A stretch of 64,000 nt of DNA from Terrimicrobiaceae bacterium (GTDB lineage Bacteria; Verrucomicrobiota; Verrucomicrobiia; Chthoniobacterales; Terrimicrobiaceae), in contig JBIIPZ010000012.1 of NCBI GenBank assembly GCA_044342325.1, forward strand, positions 1-64,000. The letters are read 5' to 3'. This document shows, piece after piece, positions 1 through 46,130 of the stretch (position 1 is its first letter; each line of letters opens with the position of its first letter). The position numbers and the translations under genes are program-made. The notes under the pieces are model-generated. The model saw only the letters and a program-made list of their open reading frames with translations, was not told the DNA's origin and did no database searches.

Positions 1-36
1 GGCATACCCCACTATCAGCACACGAGAGGAAGTCCT

Positions 37-834
37 TCAATTCGGTTCATTGCGCTTCCTCGAAAGCGGTGCACGCCTCCCGAAGGTCAGGATGTCTGAT
101 CTTGCGAAGTTTGTGCTTTCTTCGGCGATATCGACATCCATGATCCGGCTGTTCGCGGCCTCAAGGTTTGTGCGGTTTACGGCCAAGATTTCCTGCGCAA
201 ATGTCATGCGAGACTGCTCCGCACCATTGATGGCACGAAGTTCCGCAATATCTTGAATTGCAATTTCAAGCGCAGCAGATGCAGTTGTTGCGTAGTCCAC
301 TGTGGAAATTCCACCCGTCAGCGCTAAAATGTCGGTATCCACCGCATCAAGGTCGGCTTTGGTAATTCCGGCCGTTTGAGTTCCATTCTCCGAGGTAACA
401 ACTGACAATGTTTGACCGCTTGCTGCAAAGAGCGAGATGCCATTGAACTCTTCCGCCAGTAAATCGGACATGTTGGCCTGCAACTCGACAAATTCCTTAT
501 GATAGAGTGCTGTATCGTTGGTTGACACGGTGTCAACCGAAGCCAATGTGGCCAACTCTGCCATGCGAAGGGCGATGGATGATGCCACTTGCAGAACGCC
601 ATCCTGCGATTGCAGGAAGGAAAGCGCATTTCCCACATTAGCAGATACGGCATCCGTGCGACGTATCGCCGCTGAGAGTTTCATTGAGACCGCCAAGCCG
701 CCTGGATCATCGACGGCGGAGTTGATTCGGTAACCGCTTGAAAGCCGGGTGAGGCTTTTTTGCAGATTGCGGTTGTTTTGGTTCAGATGGTAAGAAACCG
801 GCGAGGCGGCTCCTGTAGCATTAAGACTGATCAT
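37..834 (-). CDS. fliC: Short flagellin with aberrant C-terminus (last conserved D0 residues replaced)
   Basis: Flagellin N-terminal motif (RLSSGYRINSAVDDPGGLAVS) and C-terminal motif (GAEQSRM...LEAANSRIMDVDIAEE). It ends ILTFGRRAPLSRKRNEPN instead of ILQQAGTAMLAQANQ. Confidence 0.9.
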   Translation of the reverse strand: MISLNATGAASPVSYHLNQNNRNLQKSLTRLSSGYRINSAVDDPGGLAVSMKLSAAIRRTDAVSANVGNALSFLQSQDGVLQVASSIALRMAELATLASVDTVSTNDTALYHKEFVELQANMSDLLAEEFNGISLFAASGQTLSVVTSENGTQTAGITKADLDAVDTDILALTGGISTVDYATTASAALEIAIQDIAELRAINGAEQSRMTFAQEILAVNRTNLEAANSRIMDVDIAEESTNFARSDILTFGRRAPLSRKRNEPN

Positions 835-906
835 ATGATATTCCTTTCAATTTGCTTGCGGCTTCCGCGCCACGGACGGGTCGAAGTTTGAGTGCTCGGC
901 CTCACT
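835..906 (-). promoter_or_regulatory. Conserved flagellin 5' leader (AGTG-N8-CACT hairpin, GGA-hexaloop hairpin, GGA in Shine-Dalgarno)
   Basis: Sense strand AGTGAGGCCGAGCACT...GTGGC-GCGGAA-GCCGC...AAAGGAATATCAT-ATG; same layout as four other leaders. Confidence 0.75.
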
Positions 907-966
907 TTTGGATTTACACCAAATTTTTTTGTTTTTTAATAAGCTTTTGAAAAAACTAGGTTGAGA

Positions 967-2325
967 TTATAAAATGAGGTTGAACAAGGAACTGTTCATG
1001 GCCACATTAGATTGAGCGATGTAAGCCGTGCCCGCATCCTGCAGAAGCTTTAAACGGGAGAAGTTGACACTCTCGGCAGCAACATCTAAATCGCGAATCT
1101 CACCAAGGGATTCCGTGGCGTGATTCTTAAGCAAAGCATTGGAATCAATCAGATTTCTGATTCGGTTTTGCTTGGCACCATTTAGTGCGATGTATTGCGC
1201 GAGGGTGTCGAAATCGATTAATTCAGTTGTAATTAAAGAATCAACAATTCCATTAAGCGCAGCAGACATATCTGTGTTTGCGCTGGCTAGACTTCCGACC
1301 ACAGCCCCGCTTTGAGAAGTAAGTTGCCTTGTTTCAGTGTCAGAAGGGTCATTTGTAAACAAGTAAAAGTTTACATCATTAGATGATAGCTGTGATGCAA
1401 CACCATTTATTGTCACTCCAGGTTGAACTGGAGGCTCAGAAGGTTCATCTGTGAAGCCAATAACCACTTTTTTGGAGTCTGTATTTTGCCAACCGCCGGC
1501 CACATCAATTGCATCATAAACTCCATCTATCAGGGACTCTCCAAGGCCTCCAACGCCACCTGTAACTTGGCCCCGCAGAGAAGTAAGCTGAGAAGTAAGA
1601 TCTGGTATCGAGCTCACAAAAGCGCCTCCGTTTGGCGCTCTGAAGGTATGCCCTGAAAGGTCTAAACGATACCCAACAGCCTTTGCAGTCCAAGTAGATG
1701 CATTTAATCTAGTAGAGACAGAATTAATAAAACTGCTAATATTTAAGACCACATTATCAATGTATGGCCCCATACTTCCAGAAATATCTGCCAAAAAAAT
1801 CATCTCTAGTGGTTTAGGATCATTCTGCGTAGTAAGATTAAATTGAGATACTGTTTCAGCAGCACTATTGATTAAACCAGTATCGGCATCCATGGAATCC
1901 ATGTCGGAATCTGGCGAAAAGAGCCTTACTCCGTTGAACCTCTCATCACGAATTTGATAAATTTGCGCGATGAGACTGGCCTTCTCGGTGTCATAGATTG
2001 AGATATCCCCTTGTGACTTTATGACATCCTCTTTTTGGATTTCAATTTCTTGAATTCTCGCTAAGATACTCCCGACGCGCTTGAGGTAGGCTTCTTGGGT
2101 CTCTAAAAAGGAGAGCGTGTTTCCCAGGTTCTGACCGAGGGCCGATGACTGGAGCACCTTGTTATTAAACCTCGCCGAGACAGCTACTCCCGCCGGATCA
2201 TCGAAAGAGGAATTTATTCGCAATCCACTCGAAAGACGGGTTATGCTTTGCTTCAGGTTTTGGTTTGTTCTGGCTAAAGTCAATGAAGCAGACATGGGCG
2301 CAGCATTTGAACTTAAGTTGATCAT
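967..2325 (-). CDS. Flagellin with inserted von Willebrand factor A (MIDAS) domain
   Basis: Flagellin N-terminus (RLSSGLRINSSFDDPAGVAVS...FNGVRLF) and C-terminus (NGAKQNRI...IRDLDVAAES...LQDAGTAYIAQSN) flank a ~190-aa insert containing IFLADISGSM (DxSxS) and VVIGFTDEP. Confidence 0.88.
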   Translation of the reverse strand: MINLSSNAAPMSASLTLARTNQNLKQSITRLSSGLRINSSFDDPAGVAVSARFNNKVLQSSALGQNLGNTLSFLETQEAYLKRVGSILARIQEIEIQKEDVIKSQGDISIYDTEKASLIAQIYQIRDERFNGVRLFSPDSDMDSMDADTGLINSAAETVSQFNLTTQNDPKPLEMIFLADISGSMGPYIDNVVLNISSFINSVSTRLNASTWTAKAVGYRLDLSGHTFRAPNGGAFVSSIPDLTSQLTSLRGQVTGGVGGLGESLIDGVYDAIDVAGGWQNTDSKKVVIGFTDEPSEPPVQPGVTINGVASQLSSNDVNFYLFTNDPSDTETRQLTSQSGAVVGSLASANTDMSAALNGIVDSLITTELIDFDTLAQYIALNGAKQNRIRNLIDSNALLKNHATESLGEIRDLDVAAESVNFSRLKLLQDAGTAYIAQSNVAMNSSLFNLIL

Positions 2326-2362
2326 AAGAATTACTCTATATCATTTCTACAGAGCTCTGAGT

Positions 2363-2391
2363 TTCATGCGAGATCAGGAATCTCACATGAA
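2363..2391 (-). other. Stem-loop between the 288-aa flagellin and the vWA-flagellin (no U-tract)
   Basis: TTCATGCGAGAT-CAGGA-ATCTCACATGAA inverted repeat on the + strand; no poly-U follows on the minus strand. Confidence 0.55.
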
Positions 2392-2429
2392 GCCGGTTAA
2401 CCGTGATAGGTTGTAAAAAACAGATGTTT

Positions 2430-3296
2430 TCAGACCAGCAACCGCAAGAGCGACTGGTTGGACTGATTCGCCTGCGCAAGCATTGCTGTTCCAGCTTGCT
2501 GCAGGATGTTCAAGCGAGCCAAGTTCGCGCTTTCTGCTGCGATATCCACATCCGTGATGCGACCGTTGGCTGCTTCGAGATTGGTTTTATTCACCGCAAG
2601 CATATCGGCAGCGAAAGTAAGGCGCACTTGCTCAGATCCATTGGTGGCACGGAGCGTTGCCAATGTTTGGATGGCTTCCGTGATATTGGAAATAGCAGCA
2701 GCAGCTCCTGTTGCGGAAGCAAAGACATCATCTGCAACAATGTCTCCAGTCGAAGAGCTAGTTCCTACGTATCCACTAACAGCAGCTAAATCAAGCTGGG
2801 AAATACCAATAGTCTGCGCACCATCTTCAGAAGTAACAACTTGAAAAGTAACATTGTCTACAGTTGTGTTCAATGTTGCCGAAGAGGCAAATAGACTCAC
2901 GCCATTGAATTTCTCGCCGAGCATGGAAACGATTTGAGATTGTAACGATTCATATTCCGTCTGATACAATGCAGTATCGGTGGAAGACTTTGTAACGTCC
3001 GTCGCCAACTGAATAAGCTCTGACATACGGTTCACCACCTTCTCGGCGCTCTTTAAGACCCCGTCCTGTGTCTGTAACGCTGAAAGCGCATTGTTCACAT
3101 TGGCTTGGGTTGCCTCTGTGCGGCGGATTGAGGCTGACAACTTCATCGAGACTGCCAGACCACCAGCGTCGTCCATCGAAGAATTAATACGCGATCCGCT
3201 CGAAAGCCGGTTGAGGCTCCGTTGCAGGTTCACATTGGTGTTTGAGAGGTTATACGCCGCCGACGTGGACGCCGTGTTTGTGTTTAGACTGATCAT
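2430..3296 (-). CDS. fliC: Short flagellin (288 aa)
   Basis: Complete flagellin N- and C-terminal motifs with a minimal variable region. Confidence 0.96.
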   Translation of the reverse strand: MISLNTNTASTSAAYNLSNTNVNLQRSLNRLSSGSRINSSMDDAGGLAVSMKLSASIRRTEATQANVNNALSALQTQDGVLKSAEKVVNRMSELIQLATDVTKSSTDTALYQTEYESLQSQIVSMLGEKFNGVSLFASSATLNTTVDNVTFQVVTSEDGAQTIGISQLDLAAVSGYVGTSSSTGDIVADDVFASATGAAAAISNITEAIQTLATLRATNGSEQVRLTFAADMLAVNKTNLEAANGRITDVDIAAESANLARLNILQQAGTAMLAQANQSNQSLLRLLV

Positions 3297-3380
3297 TTTA
3301 GTATTCCTTTACTTTTATTTATTTGTGCAGCTTCCGCGCTGCTATCGGGCCGCTTTAACTTTAAGTGTTCGACCTCACTT
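3297..3380 (-). promoter_or_regulatory. Conserved flagellin 5' leader
   Basis: AAGTG-AGGTCGAA-CACTT...GCGGCCCG...GCAGC-GCGGAA-GCTGC...AAAGGAATACTAAA-ATG. Confidence 0.78.
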
Positions 3381-3400
3381 ATTTTTTTCTGATTGAATTT

Positions 3401-3428
3401 AACCACAGAGGACACGGAGAGCACGGAG
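3401..3428 (+). repeat. 9-bp-periodic intergenic repeat (CACRGAG type)
   Basis: AACCACAGAGGACACGGAGAGCACGGAG; related copies at 4545-4572, 45740-45767 and 55696-55721. Confidence 0.7.
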
Positions 3429-3566
3429 GGGGGGCTCCGTAGGCTTATGCACTTTAAGAAAAATACTTTTTTTATTTTACAATACTCACCAGGATATTGG
3501 CTTCCATGCTTCTATCCCGATGAAGATATTGTTCATTAAATTTTGTTAACGGTCTTTGAGAATTCC

Positions 3567-4433
3567 TCAGACGAGCAAGCGCAGGACGGATTGATTCGCC
3601 TGATTCGCTTGGGCAAGCATCGCTGTTCCAGCTTGTTGCAGGATGTTCAAGCGAGCCAAGTTGGCGCTTTCGGATGCAATATCTACATCTGTGATTCGAC
3701 CGTTTGCCGCTTCGAGGTTAGTTTTATTGATCGCAAGCATATCTGCTGCAAATGTCAAACGAACCTGCTCCGAACCATTGGTGGCACGAAGTTCTGCGAG
3801 AGTTTGAATAGCAAGCGTGATATTGCTAATGGCAGCAGCAGCACCTGTGGCTGATGTAAAGGCGTCCGCAGGATCAATCTCTCCAGCATTACCTGAAGCA
3901 GTTCCGACATACCCACCAACGGCTCCCAAGTCCAATTTAGAAATATCAATTCTCTGCTCACCATCCTGTGATGTAACAACTTCCAGCGAAGCATTATCGA
4001 TAGCCACATTTACTCCACCCGCAGTGAACAAGTTGATACCGTTAAACTGCTCACCAAGCATGGATCCTAGTTGGGACTGAAGGGATTGATACTCTGTTTT
4101 ATACAATGCCGTATCAGTTGTGGACTTTGTGACGTCTGCAGCCAACTGAATAAGCTCAGACATCCGGCTTACCACTTTCTCCGCTGTCTTTAATACTCCA
4201 TCTTGAGTCTCAAGGTAGGAAAGTGCGTTATTTACATTGGCTTGGGTGGCTTCCGTCCTACGGATGGAAGCTGACAACTTCATTGAGACGGCCAAACCAC
4301 CGGCGTCGTCCATCGAGGAGTTGATGCGTGAACCGCTCGAAAGCCGATTTAGGCTCCGTTGGAGGTTCACATTGGTGTTACCCAGGTTGTAGGCTGCAGA
4401 TGTTGCTGCAGTATTTGTGTTGATGCTGATCAT
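3567..4433 (-). CDS. fliC: Short flagellin (288 aa)
   Basis: Complete flagellin motifs; closest paralogue of 2430..3296. Confidence 0.96.
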   Translation of the reverse strand: MISINTNTAATSAAYNLGNTNVNLQRSLNRLSSGSRINSSMDDAGGLAVSMKLSASIRRTEATQANVNNALSYLETQDGVLKTAEKVVSRMSELIQLAADVTKSTTDTALYKTEYQSLQSQLGSMLGEQFNGINLFTAGGVNVAIDNASLEVVTSQDGEQRIDISKLDLGAVGGYVGTASGNAGEIDPADAFTSATGAAAAISNITLAIQTLAELRATNGSEQVRLTFAADMLAINKTNLEAANGRITDVDIASESANLARLNILQQAGTAMLAQANQANQSVLRLLV

Positions 4434-4512
4434 TTTAGTATTCCTTTACTTTTGTGTTTTTGCAGCTTCCGCGCTGCCTTCGGGCGATTTTTTCAAGTGT
4501 TTGGCCTCACTT
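4434..4512 (-). promoter_or_regulatory. Conserved flagellin 5' leader
   Basis: AAGTG-AGGCCAAA-CACTT...CGCCCG...GCAGC-GCGGAA-GCTGC...AAAGGAATACTAAA-ATG. Confidence 0.75.
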
Positions 4513-4638
4513 TTTGGAGTTGTTCCAAAATTCTTTTGTTTTTTCACCACGGAGAACACGGAGGTCACGGAGAAGTTTTTGGAGCTCATCTGACTGTGTT
4601 TTGTGGTTCATGGTTAAAATTTGGTTTTTTTGACTGAA

Positions 4639-4698
4639 TCGAAGCGGAGCGGAGAAAGACTGCCCTTGGCAGCCCATGGGGCGAGCGCAGCGAGTCAA
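4639..4698 (+). mobile_element. Short double-hairpin element ending GCGAGTCAA, inserted in a 9-bp repeat
   Basis: TCGA...CTGCC-CTT-GGCAG/GCCC-ATG-GGGC...GCGAGTCAA. Removing it restores TTGACTGAA TTGACGGAA TTAACAAAA, matching the uninterrupted repeat at 4975. Confidence 0.55.
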
Positions 4699-5576
4699 TT
4701 GACGGAATTAACAAAATTGTCGGATCGCTACGAGGTGGGAGGCTGCTAAGCGACAGAGCGGTTGCTTTTCGGCATTGCGATGTGTCTGTTCCTTGAGCTG
4801 AGTAAGCCCTTTGGTTATTGTGTTCCGGTTTTTCACCAGTTTTGTTTCCTTTTCGGTAATTCGTCTGTCTTTTAGTTCATTCTATTTTCCATCCGTGGAT
4901 TCCGGCTGTATGGCGTCCTTGCCTGGCCTAGGGTTATTGTTTTTGTGAAAGTGGGTTTGGAGGGGGCTGGTTTTTTGACAGAATTGACGGAATTAACAAA
5001 ATGGCAGGATTTCCGTGAGATAGGATACTGGTATGAGGCAGTGCTGTGGCTTTTCGGCTTTGCAACGCGCCTCTTCCTTAAGCTCTATAAGCTCTTTGGT
5101 TATTTTTTTCCGGTTTTTCACCAGTTTTGTTTCCTCTTCGGTAATTCGCCCGTCGTTTAGTTCATTCTGTTTTCCATCCGTGGATTGCGGCTGTATGGCG
5201 TCCTTGCCTGGCCTAGTTTAATTGTTTTATTGGGAAATTAAGTTCAGAGGGGTTGGTGGTTTTTTTGACAGAATTGACAGAATTGACAGAATTGACAGGA
5301 TTGACGGGTTTAAAAAAATGGCAGGATTTCCGTGAGATAGGATGCCGGTATGAGGCAGTGCTGTGGCTTTTCGGCTTTGCAGCGCTTTAGGCGGTCTTTG
5401 GTTATTTTGTTCCGGTTTTTCACCAGTTTTGTTTCCTTTTCGGTAATTCGCCTGTCGTTTAGTTCATTCTATTTTTCATCCGTGGATTCCGGCTGTGTGG
5501 CGTCCTTGCCTGGCCTAGGGTTATTGTTTTATTGGGAAATTAAGTTTAGAGGGGTTGGTGGTTTTTTTTCAGAATT
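4699..5576 (-). ncRNA. Three tandem ~290-bp non-coding units rich in GGA motifs; candidate CsrA-binding (CsrB/RsmY-like) RNA
   Basis: Near-identical ~135-bp cores at 4810-4944, 5095-5228 and 5397-5530. The minus strand has GGC-AAGGAC-GCC in all copies, TCC-ACGGAT-GGA in two, and further GGA motifs in A-rich context. The repeat is certain; the RNA function is inferred. Confidence 0.45.
5265..5309 (+). repeat. Tandem 9-mer (TTGACAGAA)n
   Basis: TTGACAGAA x3, then TTGACAGGA and TTGACGGGT. Confidence 0.85.
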
Positions 5577-5637
5577 ATGCGATCATCAGGAGCTTGGAGA
5601 CTGTAATCGTCATTGCGGTTACTTTCATCCAGCCTGG

Positions 5638-5669
5638 ATTGGGGCGGGGTTTAAATCCCCCGCCCCAAT
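5638..5669 (-). other. Strong GC stem-loop 3' of flagellin, no U-tract (stability element or partial terminator)
   Basis: ATTGGGGCGGGG-N8-CCCCGCCCCAAT; homologous stem at 6735-6761. Confidence 0.65.
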
Positions 5670-5688
5670 ACCTCGGTTACCCTGATTC

Positions 5689-6558
5689 TTAGCTAATCAG
5701 TCGGAGGATGGACTGGGTAGATTGGTTCGCCTGGGCGAGCATCGCTGTGCCGGCTTGCTGCAGGATGTTGTAGCGGGCGAGCTTCGTGCTTTCGTCGGCA
5801 ACATCCACATCGAGGATGCGGCTGTTTGCAGACTCGAGGTTGGTTTTGTTCACTGCGAGCATGTCCGCAGCGAAGGTCAACCGGGACTGCTCGGCACCGT
5901 TGTTGGCGCGGAGTGTGGCTAGGTTTTGTATAGCGTCTTGGATGTAACCAACTGCATCATTAGCGTCAGCAGTGGTGCTAATGTCCATATTACTGCCCGA
6001 ATTTGTGTTACAGATATCAAAGACGATCTGATTCAAATCCACTTGTGTGATACCAACAGTCTGATTGCCATCGTGTGATGTAACCACTGTGAGAGTGGAA
6101 CTCTGGCTGATAACTGCATTGTTGGCAGAGGAACTTGCCCCCTCGCTAAACAGACTAATGCCATTGAACTCTTCATCGAGCATCAAAGTGAGCTGGCCCT
6201 TCAGTTGGGTCAGTTCCGTGTTGTAAAGAGCGAGGTCGCTGGTAGATTTGGTCACATCTTGAGCCAGCGTGGCGAGTTCTGACATGCGGTTGAGAATTTT
6301 ATCCGCTGTCTTGATAACTCCGTCCTGAGTTTGAAGGAAGGCGATGGAGTTGTTGACATTGGCCAGGGTGGCGTCTGTGCGGCGGATGGAAGCACTCATC
6401 TTCATGGACACGGCGAGGCCTCCGGCGTCGTCGTAGGATGAGTTGATGCGTGAACCGCTGGAGAGCCTGTTGAGGCTACGCTGGAGGTTCACATTGGTGT
6501 TGCTGAGGTTGTAGGCAGCCGATGTGGCTGCTGAGTTGGTGTTGATTACTACTGACAT
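5689..6558 (-). CDS. fliC: Short flagellin (289 aa)
   Basis: MSVVINTN...RLSSGSRINS and RILDVDVADES...QQAGTAMLAQANQ. Confidence 0.97.
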   Translation of the reverse strand: MSVVINTNSAATSAAYNLSNTNVNLQRSLNRLSSGSRINSSYDDAGGLAVSMKMSASIRRTDATLANVNNSIAFLQTQDGVIKTADKILNRMSELATLAQDVTKSTSDLALYNTELTQLKGQLTLMLDEEFNGISLFSEGASSSANNAVISQSSTLTVVTSHDGNQTVGITQVDLNQIVFDICNTNSGSNMDISTTADANDAVGYIQDAIQNLATLRANNGAEQSRLTFAADMLAVNKTNLESANSRILDVDVADESTKLARYNILQQAGTAMLAQANQSTQSILRLIS

Positions 6559-6630
6559 ATCCTTTGTCTTTCTATGGTGCGAAGTCCGTTTCGCTTTCGG
6601 GCCGCTTTGGTTCAGTGTTCGACCTCACTG
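6559..6630 (-). promoter_or_regulatory. Conserved flagellin 5' leader with canonical ANGGAN hexaloop
   Basis: CAGTG-AGGTCGAA-CACTG...GCGGCCCG...GCGAA-ACGGAC-TTCGC...AAAGGAT-ATG. Confidence 0.8.
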
Positions 6631-6734
6631 GTTTGACTAAATTTTATTGGACAGAATTACTGAATTTCAGAGTTGGAGGCTTTGCTTTTGTCTCAACTCT
6701 GTGGTTTGAACAGCTACTTTCGATGAGCCTGTAT

Positions 6735-6761
6735 TGGGGCGGGGTATGGTCCCCCGCCCCA
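6735..6761 (-). other. Strong GC stem-loop 3' of flagellin, no U-tract
   Basis: TGGGGCGGGG-N7-CCCCGCCCCA. Confidence 0.65.
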
Positions 6762-6782
6762 GTTACTCAGTTACCCTAATTC

Positions 6783-7664
6783 TTAGCTGATCAGTCGGAG
6801 AATCGACTGGGTCGATTGGTTCGCTTGAGCGAGCATCGCGGTGCCGGCCTGCTGCAGGATGTTGTAGCGGGCGAGTTTTGTGCTCTCGTCGGCGACATCC
6901 ACATCGAGGATGCGGCTGTTGGCGGCCTCGAGGTTCGTTTTGTTCACTGCGAGCATGTCCGCAGCGAAGGTCAACCGAGACTGCTCGGCGCCGTTGTTGG
7001 CGCGGAGTGTTGCCAAGTCTTGAATCGCGTCTTGGATATAATCCACGGCATTTTGAGCTGCTGTCGTGGTGGAGATATCCATATTGGAGCTGGAACCTGT
7101 GTTGGTGATGTCAAACACGATCTGGTTCAAGTCGACTTGAGTGATACCAACTGTTTGGTTGCCATCGTGTGATGTAACCACCGTGAGGGTTGGGTTGACA
7201 TCGATGGCGAGACCAGTTGCGGAGGCAGAGCCGCCGGCCGCGACGCCCTCTGAGAAGAGGCTAATGCCATTGAATTCTTCACTCAACATCAAGTTGAGCT
7301 GGCCCTTCAATTGTGTCAGTTCCGTGTTGTAGAGAGCGAGGTCGTTTGTAGATTTCGTCACATCTTGAGCGAGTGTGGCGAGTTCCGACATGCGGTTGAG
7401 GATTTTATCTGCGGTTTTGATGACTCCGTCCTGGGTTTGCAGGAAGGCGATGGAATTGTTGACATTGGCCAAGGTGGCGTCGGTGCGGCGGATGGAAGCG
7501 CTGAGCTTCATCGACACAGCGAGGCCGCCGGCGTCGTCGTAGGCTGAGTTGATGCGTGAACCGCTGGAGAGGCGATTAAGGCTTCTCTGGAGGTTGACGT
7601 TGGTGTTGCTGAGGTTGTAGGCAGCCGATGTGGCGGCTGAGTTGGTGTTGATTACTACTGACAT
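6783..7664 (-). CDS. fliC: Short flagellin (293 aa), first gene of the array
   Basis: Complete flagellin motifs; termini almost identical to 5689..6558. Confidence 0.97.
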   Translation of the reverse strand: MSVVINTNSAATSAAYNLSNTNVNLQRSLNRLSSGSRINSAYDDAGGLAVSMKLSASIRRTDATLANVNNSIAFLQTQDGVIKTADKILNRMSELATLAQDVTKSTNDLALYNTELTQLKGQLNLMLSEEFNGISLFSEGVAAGGSASATGLAIDVNPTLTVVTSHDGNQTVGITQVDLNQIVFDITNTGSSSNMDISTTTAAQNAVDYIQDAIQDLATLRANNGAEQSRLTFAADMLAVNKTNLEAANSRILDVDVADESTKLARYNILQQAGTAMLAQANQSTQSILRLIS

Positions 7665-7736
7665 ATCCTTTGTCTTTCTATGGTGCGAAGTCCGTCTCGC
7701 TGGCGGGCCGCTTTGGTTCAGTGTTCGACCTCACTG
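7665..7736 (-). promoter_or_regulatory. Conserved flagellin 5' leader with canonical ANGGAN hexaloop
   Basis: CAGTG-AGGTCGAA-CACTG...GCGGCCCG...GCGAG-ACGGAC-TTCGC...AAAGGAT-ATG. Confidence 0.8.
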
Positions 7737-7760
7737 GGGGAGTTTCCTCCGTTAGGTTAT

Positions 7761-7788
7761 CTATCGGCAGACAATTGATGGGGCTTTA
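7761..7788 (-). promoter_or_regulatory. Sigma28 (FliA/SigD)-type promoter
   Basis: Minus strand TAAA-N16-GCCGATAG, ~100 nt upstream of the first flagellin ATG; known consensus TAAA-N15/16-GCCGATAA. Confidence 0.85.
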
Positions 7789-7901
7789 GAAAAAATTTAA
7801 AAAAATTTTCTCTATGTCCGCAGAGCCTCTCTGGGATTGGGTCTGCGGACGGACGAGCCGCAGGAAAAACGAGGTGTCAGAATCGAGAAGGAGAAAAAAT
7901 C

Positions 7902-9101
7902 TCAGAGCTTGTGGCCCATTTTTTTCTTTTTGGTCTCGAGATAGCGGGCGTTGTGAGGGTTTGCGACGGAGCGGATGGGGAGCTGCTCGACGATTTGGAG
8001 GTCGTAGGCCTCGAGGCCGACGACTTTGCGGGGGTTATTGGTGAGGAGGCGGATTTTGTGGATGCCGAGGTCAGCGAGGATTTGCGCGCCGAGGCCGTAG
8101 TCGCGGAGGTCCATGGGGAAACCAAGGCGCTCGTTGGCTTCGACGGTGTCGAGGCCCTGCTCCTGCAATTTGTAGGCGCGGATTTTGGGTCCGAGGCCGA
8201 TGCCACGGCCTTCCTGGCGCATGTAGAGGAGAACTCCGGCGCCTTCTTTTTCGATGCGCTGCATGGCCTGGTGGAGCTGGGATCCGCAGTCGCAGCGGCG
8301 AGAGGCGAAGACATCGCCCGTGAGGCATTCGCTGTGAACCCGCACCAGGGCTGGCTTTGCGGCGGAGATTTCGCCTTTGACGAGCGCGATGTGGTGCATG
8401 CCATCAACAAGTGAGCGATAGAGGTGGAGGTTGAAATCCCCATAGTCAGTGGGCATGTGGACCGTTTCTTCGTGCTCGACGAGCTTCTCACCTTTGCGGC
8501 GGTGGGCGATGAGATCTTGGATGGAACACATCTTGAGCCCGTGTTTCTTTTTGAAGCGGACAAGATCCGGCAGGCGGGCCATGGAGCCGTCCTCTTTCAT
8601 GATTTCGCAAATGACTCCGGAGGCATCGAGACCTGCGAGGCGGGCGAGATCGACGGCGGCCTCGGTGTGGCCAGCGCGGCGCAGAACACCGCCAGCCTTG
8701 GCTTGGAGGGGAAATACATGCCCTGGCTGAACAAGGTCGGAGGGTTGTGCCTTGGGGTTGGCGAGCAGACGGATCGTGGCGGCGCGGTCTTTCACGCTGA
8801 TGCCTGTGGTCACGCCCTTGGCGGCATCCACCGAGACGGTGAAATCGGTTTTAAAAAACTCTCGGTTCTGTGCAACCATTCGCTGAAGGCCGAGACTGGC
8901 AGCGCGCTCCTCGGTAACTGGCGCGCAGATGAGCCCACGACCGAACTTTGCCATGAAATTGATAGCAGCGGGAGTGACCTTGGCGGCAGCCATGAGGAGA
9001 TCGCCCTCGTTCTCGCGGTCGGCGTCGTCGGTGACAACCACCATGCGTCCTCGACGGATGTCGGCAATGACTTCGGGAATCGGATCGAATGGTGTTTTCA
9101 T
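7902..9101 (-). CDS. ribBA: Bifunctional DHBP synthase / GTP cyclohydrolase II
   Basis: DDADRENEGD, RRAGHTEA, RVHSECLTGD and CDCG motifs. Confidence 0.97.
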   Translation of the reverse strand: MKTPFDPIPEVIADIRRGRMVVVTDDADRENEGDLLMAAAKVTPAAINFMAKFGRGLICAPVTEERAASLGLQRMVAQNREFFKTDFTVSVDAAKGVTTGISVKDRAATIRLLANPKAQPSDLVQPGHVFPLQAKAGGVLRRAGHTEAAVDLARLAGLDASGVICEIMKEDGSMARLPDLVRFKKKHGLKMCSIQDLIAHRRKGEKLVEHEETVHMPTDYGDFNLHLYRSLVDGMHHIALVKGEISAAKPALVRVHSECLTGDVFASRRCDCGSQLHQAMQRIEKEGAGVLLYMRQEGRGIGLGPKIRAYKLQEQGLDTVEANERLGFPMDLRDYGLGAQILADLGIHKIRLLTNNPRKVVGLEAYDLQIVEQLPIRSVANPHNARYLETKKKKMGHKL

Positions 9102-9140
9102 GTGTGAAATCGATAGCACAAGGCTCTCGAGCGGGGAAGA

Positions 9141-9590
9141 TCAGCGCGCTTCAGAGAGGACAAGTTTCAGAATTTTCTGCTGGGTTACGGCCATTTTTTT
9201 GGCATCCGGCTCCGAGATGTCATCGAAGCCGGAGAGGTGCAGGAGACCGTGGATGATGTAGAGGGCGAGTTCCTGGGTTGTGCTGTGGCCAAACTCTGGA
9301 GCGCGGGCTGCGGCGACCGAGGCGCAGACCAAAATCTCGCCGTAGGGAAAAGTGATGACATCCGTTGCGCCGCGAATGTCCAGAAAGTCGCGGTGCACTT
9401 TCGCCATGGCGCGGGAGCCCAGAATGCTGATCTCGACACCCGACAGAGCAGCCAGCTCAGCGTTGTTTTTTTTTGCGAGAGTGAGGCAGTGGGGAATGGC
9501 TGCCTCTGCCAGGCACTCCAGAAGCTCGCGATCGTAGGCAGTGGAGCGGGCGTTGTGGGATAGAGATGTTTTCAGCAGCGGCGACCTCAC
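9141..9590 (-). CDS. ybeY: rRNA maturation RNase YbeY
   Basis: TDVITF and HGLLHLSGFD motifs; lies in the phoH-HD-ybeY operon. Confidence 0.9.
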   Translation of the reverse strand: MRSPLLKTSLSHNARSTAYDRELLECLAEAAIPHCLTLAKKNNAELAALSGVEISILGSRAMAKVHRDFLDIRGATDVITFPYGEILVCASVAAARAPEFGHSTTQELALYIIHGLLHLSGFDDISEPDAKKMAVTQQKILKLVLSEAR

Positions 9591-11167
9591 GCAGCGGATT
9601 TTTGTTCGCGTTTTTCCGGTGTGGAGCGTTCCTCGCGTTTCGGGTAGGCGATGCGAGCGTGGAGCATGTTGACGAGCGAGAAGCGGAAGCTGTCGGCGAT
9701 TTTCCAGATCTCGGCGATGGTCAGAGGAGCCTCGTCGAGTTGTCCCTCATCGAGTCGCGCTTTGATGATATTGCGGATGAGATCGTCGATGCGTTGTGGC
9801 GTGGGGCGGTCGAGACTGCGCGAGGCGCTTTCGATCGAGTCGGCGAGGCTCACGATGGCGGCCTCCTTCGTCTGCGGGCGGGGTCCGGGGTAGCGGAAAC
9901 TCTCCTCGCTCACCTCGGGAATATCCTCCTCGCGCATGTTCATGATTTTTCCGCCAAGGCGAGCATCCTCCTGTTGCTGCAGGGCACGCTGGTAGAAATA
10001 CGAAACCATGGAGGTGCCGTGATGCTGGCTGATGACATCGATGATCTCGGCGTTGAGCTTGTTTTTGAGGGCCAGATCCACGCCCTCCTTCACATGGGAG
10101 ATGATAATGAGAGCACTCATCGTCGGAGTGAGGTCGTCGTGGGGATTCAAGCCGTGGGGGATGTTTTCGGTGAAGTAGTGAGGTTTTACGACCTTGCCGA
10201 TGTCGTGGAAATACGAGGCGACGCGGCAGATTGTGGGGTTCGCTCCGACGACTTCTGCGGCGGCTTCCGAGAGGTTCGCGACGGCCAGGCTGTGATGGTA
10301 GGTGCCCGGTGCCTCAAGGCTGAGACGCTTGAGGAGCGGGTGGTTCAGGTCGCTCATCTCCAACCACGAGATGTCGGTGGTGATTTTGAAAACATGCTCG
10401 AGCATTGGCAGGATGCCGCTGACGACGATGGCTGTGGCAATGCCGGTGGCAAAGGCCGCCAAGCTCTGCCATCCAATCATGGCCCAGTCGGTCTGTGAGG
10501 GCACTTCCCAAATTACTGGGCCGATCTGGCCAAACGCGGCGGCGAGAATCCAAGTGGCGAGCCCCACATAGACACCGGCCCGCACGAGGCGACTGCGGCG
10601 ACGGACTTGCAGCGTCACAAAAACACCGATGAAACCGGTGATCAGCGAAATCACCAAAAACACCGGGTCGATGCGGCCGACAAGGAGCGAGCCCCAGAGG
10701 CTGGAAAAAACGGCGGCGTAGAGCCCGTGATTCCGCCCTAGGAGCACGGAGAGCACAAGAGGTGCGAAGGCGTAGGGAATCAGAAGCGGAGCGAGTTGGA
10801 GGTCGAGTGATCCTGCAGCGGCCTGACTGAGGAGGATTTTGATGACAGCCAACTGCGCGAGTAATGTTCCCAACACGAGGCAGAGGAGGGAATTTTGCCG
10901 AAATGTCTGGGGATGGTTGATCCAGAGTTGCGCAACAGCCGTGGCAAAAATGAGCAGGCAGAGCAGGAACTTTTTGGCGGGTTCATCCTGCTGGCCAGTG
11001 AAAATGAGCGCCGCGAGGCCGAAGATGAAAGCGGCGAGCAGAACGGCACGGATCGGCCAGCCATTTTGAAGGGCAGAGAGAAAATTGCTCTCCTCGACCT
11101 GACGACGCCGCTTGCTGGAGGAAAGCCCCTTCCAGACGAGTCGCCAGCGTTTGAAGATTCCGAACAT
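9587..11167 (-). CDS. 7TM-HD membrane phosphohydrolase (YqfF/PgpH family)
   Basis: Multiple TM segments, then APGTYHHS, FHDIGK, HHGT and LADSIE. Confidence 0.92.
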   Translation of the reverse strand: MFGIFKRWRLVWKGLSSSKRRRQVEESNFLSALQNGWPIRAVLLAAFIFGLAALIFTGQQDEPAKKFLLCLLIFATAVAQLWINHPQTFRQNSLLCLVLGTLLAQLAVIKILLSQAAAGSLDLQLAPLLIPYAFAPLVLSVLLGRNHGLYAAVFSSLWGSLLVGRIDPVFLVISLITGFIGVFVTLQVRRRSRLVRAGVYVGLATWILAAAFGQIGPVIWEVPSQTDWAMIGWQSLAAFATGIATAIVVSGILPMLEHVFKITTDISWLEMSDLNHPLLKRLSLEAPGTYHHSLAVANLSEAAAEVVGANPTICRVASYFHDIGKVVKPHYFTENIPHGLNPHDDLTPTMSALIIISHVKEGVDLALKNKLNAEIIDVISQHHGTSMVSYFYQRALQQQEDARLGGKIMNMREEDIPEVSEESFRYPGPRPQTKEAAIVSLADSIESASRSLDRPTPQRIDDLIRNIIKARLDEGQLDEAPLTIAEIWKIADSFRFSLVNMLHARIAYPKREERSTPEKREQKSAA

Positions 11168-11168
11168 T

Positions 11169-12140
11169 TTAGATTCTGCTTTCCCGTGAGCCCCGGTGGT
11201 TTTTGTAGGCCAGGATCACGGCCTGGACGAGTGGATGCCGCACGACATCCTTCTCGGTGAAAAAGTGCATTCCTATGCCATCGACATCCCTGAGTGCGGC
11301 GACGGCTTCTACAAGGCCGCTGAGCTTGTTTCGTGGAAGATCAATCTGTGTGACATCTCCCGTCACCACGCAGCGAGAGCCAAGGCCGAGGCGGGTAAGG
11401 AACATGAGCATCTGCTCGGCGGTGGTGTTTTGAGCTTCGTCGAGGATGACAAAAGACCCGCTCAAGGTGCGTCCGCGCATGTAGGCGAGCGGAGCGATTT
11501 CGATGATGTTTTTATCCATGAGCTTCTGCAGCTCATCCGGCTCCAGAAGGTCGTGCAGCGCATCGTAGAGAGGACGCAGATAGGGAAGAATTTTTTCCTG
11601 CAGGTCACCGGGCAGGAAACCCAGAGCCTCGCCTGCTTCGACGGCTGGCCTGGTGAGAATGAGTCGTTTCACTTTTTCCTGCTTGAGAGCGGCTACGGCG
11701 GATGCCACAGCAAGGTAGGTTTTTCCGGTTCCTGCTGGGCCGACGCCGAAAGTGATGTCGTGGGACTGGATCGCCTGAACATAGGTTTTTTGTCCAGCGG
11801 TGCGAGGGACGACCGGGGGCTTGCGTGGGGAGCACTGGATACGGATATCAATGAGGCTGGCGAGGGATTCTGCAGAGCCTGGCCCCTTTGAAGCCTCCAA
11901 AGCGTGCTCGAATTCTTGGCGATGGATGGTGATGCCCCGCTTGACGGCGGCATGGAGTTGCTCGAGGGCATCGCGCGCACGCTCGACTGCAACCTTTTCG
12001 CCCTCCACGCGAATCCATCCATCGCGCGCGGTGATGCGGACTTCGAGGCGATGTTCCAACTCGTGGAGCAGCTTGGGGTCGCCTCCGTAAACGGCCTGCG
12101 CGGTGCGGGCGTTCTCGAATTCCAGCGTGAGGGTTTCCAT
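11169..12140 (-). CDS. phoH: PhoH family ATPase
   Basis: GPAGTGKT, RPAVEAGE and DEAQN motifs. Confidence 0.96.
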   Translation of the reverse strand: METLTLEFENARTAQAVYGGDPKLLHELEHRLEVRITARDGWIRVEGEKVAVERARDALEQLHAAVKRGITIHRQEFEHALEASKGPGSAESLASLIDIRIQCSPRKPPVVPRTAGQKTYVQAIQSHDITFGVGPAGTGKTYLAVASAVAALKQEKVKRLILTRPAVEAGEALGFLPGDLQEKILPYLRPLYDALHDLLEPDELQKLMDKNIIEIAPLAYMRGRTLSGSFVILDEAQNTTAEQMLMFLTRLGLGSRCVVTGDVTQIDLPRNKLSGLVEAVAALRDVDGIGMHFFTEKDVVRHPLVQAVILAYKNHRGSRESRI

Positions 12141-45739: not shown

Positions 45740-46130
45740 AACCACGGAGGACACAGAGAGCACGGAGGAGGAAAAAATTAGGCAGGATTGACTAAACCAA
45801 CCTTGGTCCTGTTAATCTCGAAAACGGATTTTAAAACAAAATGACCGAATTGCAGCGGAGCAAAAAAGACTACCACGGGTAGCCCAAAGGACTAGGCGAT
45901 TCAATTTAAAAGATTCACAGTAAATCCTTGGTCGTGTTGTAGATTTCACAAAACATTTAATACTTTTGAAAGTGCAAATAACTCACATTCTCCGTGCTCT
46001 TTGACTCGCTCGCTCCCGCTCGACTCGCCCTTCGGGCCATCCTGCGGTTGCTCTTCCTCAAAGGCTCCCCAGCCTTTTCGGTTGTGTCCTCTGTGGTTAA
46101 TTCTGAAATTCTGTAAATTCTGTCCAAAAT
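45740..46130. repeat. Cluster of 9-bp-periodic repeats with two nested hairpin elements
   Basis: AACCACGGAGGACACAGAGAGCACGGAG at 45740; inserts at 45850-45904 (+) and 46001-46081 (-); AATTCTG x3 at about 46099-46123. Confidence 0.65.

Follow-up and report, generated by a model that had tools for sequence, protein, structure and literature searches.

A tandem array of three A-rich units interrupts a flagellin gene cluster in a stretch of 64,000 nt from a Terrimicrobiaceae bacterium of the Verrucomicrobiota (assembly GCA_044342325.1, contig JBIIPZ010000012.1, positions 1 to 64,000 of the forward strand), called here the window. The array is read on the minus strand, in the sense of the flagellin genes. 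Judging from sequence features, we assign a probability of about 0.45 to the reading that each unit is a flagellin-leader mimic lacking a coding sequence (CDS), amplified in tandem, and predicted to work as a CsrA-binding decoy beside FliW. The 5′ half of the conserved core features a hairpin with an AAGGAN hexaloop, followed after about 24 nt by a Shine-Dalgarno (SD)-like CCACGGAUGG(A) and then, normally spaced, by an AUG that meets a stop after one codon. This half mirrors the leaders of flagellin genes, and homologous units lie next to flagellin genes in other genomes of the genus.

Organization of the units and likeness to flagellin leaders

The three units, 285–302 nt each, were recognized on the minus strand by Tandem Repeats Finder (4697–5576, period 285, 3.0 copies, 80% matches), by a repeat search (three 247-nt copies, spacings of 285 and 302) and by BLAST, and the offsets of 285 and 302 bp given in an earlier, sequence-only description of the locus (the first-pass annotation) are correct. 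They reside in the 1255-nt gap (4434–5688) between the flagellin genes fla3, upstream, and fla2, downstream. The gap has a G+C content of 43–46%, against 56.5% in the genome, and its minus strand is strongly A-rich. In the flagellin sense the array is 38% A and includes 20 GGA triplets, 6–7 per unit, two of which fall in predicted hairpin loops; the A-rich, GGA-bearing strand noticed in the first pass is thus real. Since full copies of unit 2 were found by BLAST in the whole 2.93-Mb assembly only within the array, the unit is not a mobile or dispersed element. Conserved cores of 140 nt, all on the minus strand, were located by a covariance model (R1) built from 20 units: 5399–5538 in unit 1, nearest fla3 (155 bits), 5097–5236 in unit 2 (152.3 bits) and 4812–4951 in unit 3, nearest fla2 (158.2 bits). 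In 38 stretches of metagenome contigs retrieved by an exact-pattern scan, the model recognizes 81 units, 67 distinct and 54 of full length.

Read 5′ to 3′, the core includes hairpin A, GGC-AAGGAC-GCC (4912–4923, 5197–5208, 5499–5510), in which a 3-bp stem holds GGA in a hexaloop; it is predicted both in the RNAalifold consensus and in single folds. Hairpin A is nested in an outer stem of 3–4 bp. Across units it reads GGC-AAGGAN-GCC, only the last base of the loop being variable. The inner stem is GC/GC/CG in 22–25 of 25 sequences, and the outer stem occurs as GGCC/GGCC, GCCC/GGGC, GGUC/GACC, GGCU/GGCC and other variants. About 12 nt past the nested hairpin lies the SD-like site C (AAUCCACGGAUGGA), which folds, in the consensus as in single sequences, as UCC-ACGGAU-GGA or UCCA-CGGA-UGGA (4888–4899, 5173–5184, 5475–5486, minus strand). 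Two units keep the stem of site C intact, whereas in the one nearest fla3 (5475–5486) it is broken (…GAUGAA). Both hairpins had been reported in the first pass, in three copies and in two, respectively, and these counts are exact. CCA-CGGA-UG marks 52/54 full-length metagenome units, a count biased by the pattern used to fish them. The distance from the GGA of hairpin A to that of site C (CCACGGAUGGA) measures 24 nt.

A mini open reading frame (mini-ORF), AUG-AAC-UAA, is found in the unit alignment 7 nt past the second GGA of site C (4872–4880, 5157–5165, 5459–5467, minus strand). It is invariant in 20 genome-derived units, save for a UAG in one unit of genome G051. AUG-NNN-stop is kept in all 24 genome-derived units and in 53/54 full-length metagenome units, a set fished with a pattern containing ATGAACTA; the remaining unit has AUU. 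Variants seen elsewhere are AUG-AAA-UAA, AUG-AAG-UAA, AUG-AGC-UAA, AUG-AAU-UAG and AUG-AAC-UGA, and thus stops are UAA, UAG or UGA and second codons AAC, AAU, AGC, AAA or AAG. A spacer of 16–19 nt, variable in sequence, separates the mini-ORF from ACCG(A/C)A.AGGAAAC. Site 3 (ACCGAAAAGGAAAC; 4841–4858, with GGA also at 5134 and 5436, minus strand) is a conserved block carrying a single-stranded GGA, present in 52/54 full-length metagenome units. About 10 nt past ACCG(A/C)A.AGGAAAC, unit alignments reveal a terminal hairpin, CUGG-UGAAAAA-CCGG, with GUG inside (4825–4839, minus strand). It carries (A/G)UGAA, and one of its pairs is U.G in 16 sequences, U-A in 3 and G.U in 4. In divergent units, denoted type 2, this type 1 hairpin is replaced by GCC-G(C/G)AA-GGC, a stem with a GNRA loop located after the AUG. 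The last ~150 nt of the unit are purine-rich and poorly conserved. Repeat searches mark the unit boundaries by 2–5 copies of the 9-mer UUCUGUCAA plus an A-run (4–5 copies at 5262–5310, a shorter copy at 4975–5002, minus strand). Folding also predicted a long-range helix that would pair ...CAGAAUG with the boundary CAUU(U/C)UGU, but it was discarded as inconsistent across units by eye.

Thirteen of 21 flagellin leaders from other Verrucomicrobiota (Opitutaceae-like) have a hairpin of 5 bp whose hexaloop is of the A(C/A)GGAC type, followed after ~10 nt by AUCAAGGAAG and the AUG, placed 10 nt past the GGA. Leaders of the flagellin genes in the window have a GCGA-(A/G)ACGGACU-UCGC or GCAGC-GCGGAA-GCUGC hairpin, followed by AAAGGAU or AAAGGAAU and AUG; fla2 combines the GCAGC-GCGGAA-GCUGC hairpin with the AAAGGAAU SD. 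The model built from units matches an Opitutaceae flagellin leader across the start codon (E 0.02), hairpin falling on hairpin and SD on site C. The spacing from GGA to AUG is equal in units (GGAAAAUAGAAUG) and in Opitutaceae-like leaders (GGAAGAUACCAUG). Because the leader design is shared, the model matches and the spacing is the same, the 5′ half of the core is seen to have the layout of a flagellin translation-initiation region. In Opitutaceae-like metagenome-assembled genomes (MAGs; loci L064–L097, 110 nt upstream of starts) the leaders carry a near-invariant GCGAC-ACGGAC-GUCGC hairpin plus a AUCAAGGAAGAU SD, which from its sequence looks like a phylum-wide CsrA-type operator; no description of this leader operator was found in a literature search.

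The proteins that such a leader would engage are encoded in the same genome, where a flgL-like gene, fliW and csrA lie in a row on contig C24. CsrA (96 aa) matches PF02599 at 80.3 bits and FliW (149 aa) matches PF02623 at 93.2 bits. Beyond the Pfam domain, CsrA (469–759 of the contig, minus strand, locus L018) extends into a C-terminal tail, ~40 residues long, in which A, R and Q are frequent. A search of this 86%-complete genome for FlbT, an alternative leader-binding partner, gave no match.

Selection, coding potential and distribution

Between genomes, the ~140-nt core is 0.72–0.88 identical, against 0.20–0.62 for the rest of the unit and the flanks. Four-fold degenerate sites of fla3 are 0.47–0.57 identical when the genome of the window (G000) is compared to G007, G014, G041 and G048. 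Core conservation far exceeds that of neutral sites and the units are therefore not neutral: the core is under purifying selection. The first-pass annotation had considered that the unit may simply be the untranslated region (UTR) of deleted genes. This stands in so far as the 5′ half resembles a flagellin leader with its start codon, but purifying selection across species tells that the core is not a decaying relic.

Variable columns of the core are distributed over the three phases as 20/19/25, and hence show no 3-nt periodicity. A sense frame of 37–42 aa is open from a conserved GUG in each unit of the window. In pairwise comparisons of these frames, differences at codon positions 1/2/3 amount to 8/13/11, 12/15/18 and 3/5/1, and sense ORFs carry 0–6 synonymous versus 8–28 non-synonymous codon changes. 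Across units, sense ORFs vary in length from 17 to 98 aa, being truncated or shifted in many; in type 2 units the synonymous share is 0.112 in the ORF frame, versus 0.116 and 0.128 in the other frames. Long open sense frames are expected by chance, since the sense strand is only 17% T. Sense and plus-strand ORFs, lacking both a codon-phase pattern and a conserved frame, were rejected as genes. The unit is non-coding, and the earlier statement that the ~1.25-kb gap holds no credible ORF agrees with the absence of codon periodicity and of an excess of synonymous changes.

DNA runs containing the stretch are lake and freshwater metagenomes, and the nearest named flagellin loci belong to MAGs labelled Terrimicrobiaceae and Verrucomicrobia. 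The core was identified by BLAST in 11/41 genomes of the genus, that of the window included, and by R1 in 12/41. The latter have three copies in G000, four in G007, two in G008, G014, G017, G041, G047, G048 and G051, and one in G044, G045 and G053, where the match is weak (E 0.004). The search of related genomes by covariance model, which the first pass had suggested, thus yielded homologues, and their conserved parts are the GGA-loop hairpins. In all of the 11 genomes whose loci were checked by tblastn, the core is adjacent to flagellin genes and on the flagellin strand; flagellin genes were found at both sides of the units in 5 of these, where the contig is long enough. Some members of the genus without the unit carry flagellin arrays with gaps of 116–290 nt. 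At E≤0.01 and with stricter filters, R1 found no core in the genomes sampled outside the genus, neither in 6 from other genera of the family nor in 109 from 15 further families of the order, and 26 flagellin loci of other Verrucomicrobiota gave weak partial matches only.

Copy number is variable. Two metagenome contigs of ~1.8 kb, L170 and L142, are each made wholly of 7 tandem units, a length of 1824 nt being recorded for such a pure array. Because these contigs are all array, the natural copy number ranges from 1 up to 7 or more. Such arrays are probably collapsed or broken in short-read assemblies. In another Terrimicrobiaceae MAG (L066), two flagellin genes are each followed, at ~100 nt, by the 3′ half of the core alone (1680–1733 and 3102–3157). 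These half-cores feature AUG-AAG-UAA, ACCGAAAAG(G)AAA and a CCAG/CUGG hairpin with GUG. Since it occurs on its own, the 3′ half of the core appears older than the leader-like half.

The predicted CsrA decoy and competing readings

If the units work as proposed, CsrA dimers would bind hairpin A and site C as they do on real flagellin leaders, and further single-stranded GGA sites downstream would offer extra predicted CsrA sites. One CsrA dimer bridges GGA sites 10–63 nt apart, as stated in a review of 2020 (PMC7652899), and the 24 nt from hairpin A to site C are within this range. The consensus obtained by SELEX, in which ligands evolve systematically through exponential enrichment, for CsrA is given in the same source as RUACARGGAUGU, to which site C conforms at 9/12 positions and hairpin A at 8/12. 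Units make no flagellin, and hence would not tie up FliW; by titrating CsrA they would favour translation of the neighbouring flagellin genes, and the dose of the decoy would follow from the tandem copy number, 1 to 7 or more.

The leader of Campylobacter jejuni flaA is described as both a target and a sponge of CsrA in a FliW-CsrA system (Dugar et al. 2016, PMC4894983). By that description it has, like the units, a pair of short stem-loops whose loops hold ANGGA, the second of them lying at the ribosome-binding site. Both organisms encode FliW and CsrA and no CsrB-type small RNA (sRNA), and the titration of CsrA from flagellar mRNAs by a flagellin leader, described there, is what is proposed here. 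Unlike the flaA leader, which belongs to a translated flagellin mRNA, the units have no CDS, are in tandem and feature extra conserved blocks, and their titration of CsrA is a prediction. Bacillus subtilis hag is controlled through its leader by the Hag-FliW-CsrA partner switch (Yakhnin 2007; Mukherjee 2011, as reported in PMC7652899 and PMC13443453). Shared traits are an upstream GGA in a hairpin loop, a GGA over the SD, and fliW-csrA beside flagellar hook-associated genes; the hag operator acts on a real mRNA, whereas units are candidate operators without a gene. The two-site layout of hag and flaA, an ANGGA hairpin loop plus a second GGA at the SD at bridging distance, is found in the units, but the context is different, as AUG is followed by AAC and UAA and the next flagellin start is 440–1030 nt away. 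CsrB, CsrC, RsmX, RsmY and RsmZ of Gammaproteobacteria, as reviewed in PMC7652899, are like the units non-coding, with repeated GGA in short loops and single-stranded linkers, and occur in several gene copies. The units differ from them, having no Rfam match and no GacA/UvrY box, residing in a FliW-bearing Verrucomicrobium, and mimicking an initiation region with a start codon. By these features the unit would work like the CsrB/Rsm families without being a member of them, its design being that of the hag/flaA operator without the flagellin CDS.

RNA antagonists of CsrA are, to our knowledge, essentially restricted to Gammaproteobacteria. A literature search on CsrA, Verrucomicrobi* and flagellin, in which papers were judged by title, gave no work on CsrA-related RNA in Verrucomicrobia. 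Among organisms with FliW, the sole RNA antagonist known is a translated mRNA, that of C. jejuni flaA (PMC4894983), and by the review of 2020 it "remains to be determined" whether FliW and an sRNA jointly control CsrA in any species (PMC7652899). A conserved, selected leader mimic, devoid of CDS and variable in copy number, provides in Verrucomicrobiota a concrete object for this question; measuring ~140 nt, it is easily synthesized, and offers two obvious sites for mutation. If the reading is true, the leader of a target gene can itself give rise to the sponge RNA. A broader scenario, possible though doubtful, is that this lineage of FliW-CsrA bacteria, and perhaps several phyla convergently, evolved gene-less copies of the flagellin initiation region, multiplied in tandem within the flagellin array, as an RNA antagonist of CsrA working with FliW. 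Copy number would then be an evolvable dial of flagellin synthesis, and start plus stop would keep the decoy ribosome-competent but unproductive.

The enrichment in GGA is uneven. Compared to dinucleotide shuffles, the array has 20 GGA vs 12.6±2.6 (z 2.9) and 14 A.GGA vs 4.6±2.0 (z 4.8), z-scores which are not independent because the units are copies of one another. As many as 14 A.GGA are reached by only 0.013% of the 891-nt windows of the genome. In the 3′ parts of the first unit, summed over 12 related genomes, 40 GGA were observed vs 25.0 expected from local shuffles, and type 2 units have 6–9 GGA in the 3′ part.

Several data weigh against a CsrA decoy. The comparison with dinucleotide shuffles that the first-pass annotation called for is favourable for the array as a whole, but single 120-nt cores do not exceed local shuffles (5–6 GGA vs ~4.3), and 20 or more GGA are ordinary, being reached by 32.5% of the 891-nt windows of the genome. 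SELEX-like sites (at least 8/12 positions) number 6 per 891 nt in the array vs 1.54 per kb genome-wide, yet 8–10 occur elsewhere and the array does not rank among the top clusters. Stems measure only 3–4 bp, and folding energy is no better than in shuffles (z -1.06 for the unit; 0.24, -0.47 and 0.43 for leader-like segments). RNAalifold, also called for, returned the GGA-loop hairpin A and site C in the consensus. Covariation is not significant: 3 pairs with double changes are matched by 74/500 shuffles. Rfam 15 cmscan (window 1–12000, E≤1) detected no Csr/Rsm family and nothing in the gap, the sole hit being a weak, unrelated Hrs13 at 10617–10691. The best-conserved block, AAUGAACUA, encompasses the AUG-AAC-UAA region and has no GGA, and this conservation is left unexplained by a sponge. 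No match was found in 29/41 genomes of the genus, and the 3′ half of the core which follows the flagellin genes of another Terrimicrobiaceae MAG has degenerate GGA. The GacA/UvrY promoter box is TGTAAG-N6-CTTACA; allowing up to 3 mismatches, 11 are found in the window vs 9.6 expected, and none in 4434–5688. Of the candidate CsrA sponge put forward in the first pass, what holds is a non-coding, tandem unit with conserved GGA-loop hairpins in a genome encoding CsrA and FliW; enrichment of GGA is weak relative to the genome, and homology to CsrB/Rsm is missing.

One-sided changes in the stems are all G.U or U.G, and hence pair on the flagellin-sense strand only, becoming A.C on the plus strand. 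AUG-codon-stop and leader likeness are likewise features of the flagellin-sense strand, and from these sequence traits we infer that the units are transcribed in that sense. Fold z-scores of the unit (+0.87 on the plus strand, against the negative value on the sense strand) do not decide the strand. Parts of the unit are covered at depth 2–18 by contigs of four RNA libraries, each from a different study; these contigs are strandless and possibly affected by DNA carry-over. Positions 4812–4997 are covered at depth 16.7, 4826–4957 with 5041–5140 at 10.2, and 5242–5442 at 17.6. Cover of the species-specific middle of fla3 in RNA libraries is ~6–170. Several bins of the unit have little or no contig cover in single runs, which counts neither way.

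Units may alternatively be cis-acting parts of an mRNA, giving fla3 a long 3′ UTR or fla2 an extended 5′ UTR, and serve as operators or as stability or processing elements. CsrA may still bind such a UTR, with an effect on the attached mRNA. We regard this as unlikely, though the hairpin past fla3 has no U-tract, one RNA-library contig joins the 3′ end of fla3 to unit-like sequence, another spans a unit boundary, and in G045 and G051 the next flagellin start is preceded by one or two units at a distance of ~250 nt. Contigs cannot prove one transcript, however; fla2 has its own promoter-like CUCCGUG x3 downstream of the array, a terminator-like hairpin is found past the last unit, and the flanking genes stay unchanged while the number of units ranges from 1 to 7 or more. 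Just as unlikely is a sense regulatory RNA keyed on SD plus AUG-codon-stop, then on SD plus (A/G)UG, which would load or trap ribosomes or bind a partner other than CsrA. It would account for the persistence of AUG-NNN-stop (53/54 metagenome and 24/24 genome-derived units) through three stops and varied second codons, for the greater age of the block and 3′ module relative to the leader-like half, and for the conservation of the start-like (A/G)UG as GUG or AUG. Few independent substitutions are available, though, no known factor is implicated, FlbT was not found in the 86%-complete genome, and GGA-bearing blocks are conserved too. Bacterial two-codon minigenes, or start-stop elements, consist of SD, AUG, one sense codon and stop; the mini-ORF resembles them in layout, and they are named only as a possible lead for the conserved block. 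Part of the unit may have a role beyond that of a decoy, because the best-conserved block is free of GGA and the 3′ half stands alone.

The remaining readings are less probable. Each unit might encode a U/C-rich sRNA on the plus strand, running from TTGACA-N16-CAAAAT to a T-run, whose UCC motifs would pair with flagellin SDs and repress translation. Sigma70-like sites are found at 4975–5002, 5265–5292 and 5292–5319, a T7–8 run closes each unit, and the absolute minimum free energy is lower on the plus strand. We hold this quite improbable, as promoter-like hits are 6 vs 5.0±2.5 in shuffles, no G+C hairpin precedes the T-runs, folding is not better than in shuffles on this strand, stem variants become mismatches, and AUG-codon-stop and leader likeness pertain to the other strand. 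Units could also act as DNA, being arrays of promoter or regulator sites, or be neutral relics, the recombination scars of deleted flagellin genes. Their boundaries belong to a genome-wide 9-bp-periodic family (34 copies), two blocks of the 3′ half resemble the TAAA...CCGA pair of sigma28 promoters, and a leader with start fits a flagellin gene whose body was lost; but conservation of the core far above neutral sites, and stem changes limited to G.U, which point to RNA, make either option very unlikely. The sigma28 reading of the 3′-half blocks (CUAAA ... ACCGAAAA) was dismissed, since a spacer varying from 16 to 19 nt among units is too loose for such a promoter; scanning the genome for TAAA-N14-17-CCGA gave just 18 mixed hits. 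The least likely option is a small protein per unit, translated from the 37–42-aa GUG ORF in sense or from plus-strand ORFs of 62–111 aa. The sense frame is open in all three units of the window, the 15-nt and the long indel are in frame, and a 42-aa frame is found in 7/23 further type 1 metagenome units, but the lack of codon-position bias, the scarcity of synonymous changes, the frames truncated or shifted in many units and the T-poor strand all argue against translation.

Promoter-like repeats and flanking elements

The 9-mers at the unit boundaries belong to the family (YTCYGTSNN)x3, found 6 times in the window vs 0.03 expected, and 34 times in the 2.9-Mb genome. These repeats often form divergent pairs 60–80 bp apart, and precede fla1 and fla2. 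Downstream of 24/34 sites, an ORF of at least 100 aa has its start within 200 nt, vs 16/34 in the opposite direction. The family may be a lineage-specific promoter type, as GTGGTTAAAT resembles an extended -10; if so, each unit would carry one pointing flagellin-ward. As a sense promoter of the units, the boundary 9-mer is only suggestive. A stereotyped form, CTCCGTGNN CTCCGTGNN CTCCGTG GTTAA, is found at 3404–3428, 4548–4572 and 45743–45767 on the minus strand; the copy at 4548–4572, CUCCGUG x3 in 9-bp phase, is the promoter-like element of fla2, 114 nt upstream of the start. The variant TTCTGTCAA plus A-run, which marks unit boundaries, resides also at many unrelated intergenic sites in other genomes of the genus (L009–L016). 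Some copies are just upstream of gene starts, one lies over the start of a prepilin-like ORF, and three behind convergent gene ends; the UUCUGUCAA variant sits behind convergent gene ends in three relatives.

The first-pass annotation had the sponge produced when a sigma28 operon fires. A recognizable sigma28-type promoter is found at one of the four neighbouring flagellin genes only, fla4 (TAAA-N16-GCCGATAG, 7761–7788, minus strand), and the link to sigma28 is thus hypothetical. CTCCGTG x3 takes the place of this promoter in fla1 and fla2, and fla3 has neither in clear form; the tandem flagellin genes thus seem to use different promoter classes.

A weak terminator-like hairpin, GGGCUGCC-AAG-GGCAGUCU followed by UUCUCC, is located past the last unit (4657–4675, minus strand; segment z only -0.88), and is conserved in the same position in G007, G044 and G047. 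Very stable hairpins of 12 bp, G+C-rich and devoid of U-tract (GGGGCGGGGG...CCCCGCCCC), follow the stops of fla3 (5638–5669, minus strand; z -3.59, 0/200 shuffles fold as well) and fla4 (~6741–6770, minus strand). They may be processing or 3′-protection hairpins rather than classical terminators.

Six flagellin-family ORFs, all matching Pfam Flagellin_N and Flagellin_C, lie on the minus strand in 1–7700 of the window. Two are found at 37–834 and 967–2325, and the others are fla1 (2430–3296), fla2 (3567–4433, 288 aa), fla3 (5689–6558, 289 aa) and fla4 (6783–7664). The ORF at 967–2325 encodes 452 aa and is far longer than the other five (265–293 aa); several types of flagellin may make up the filament.

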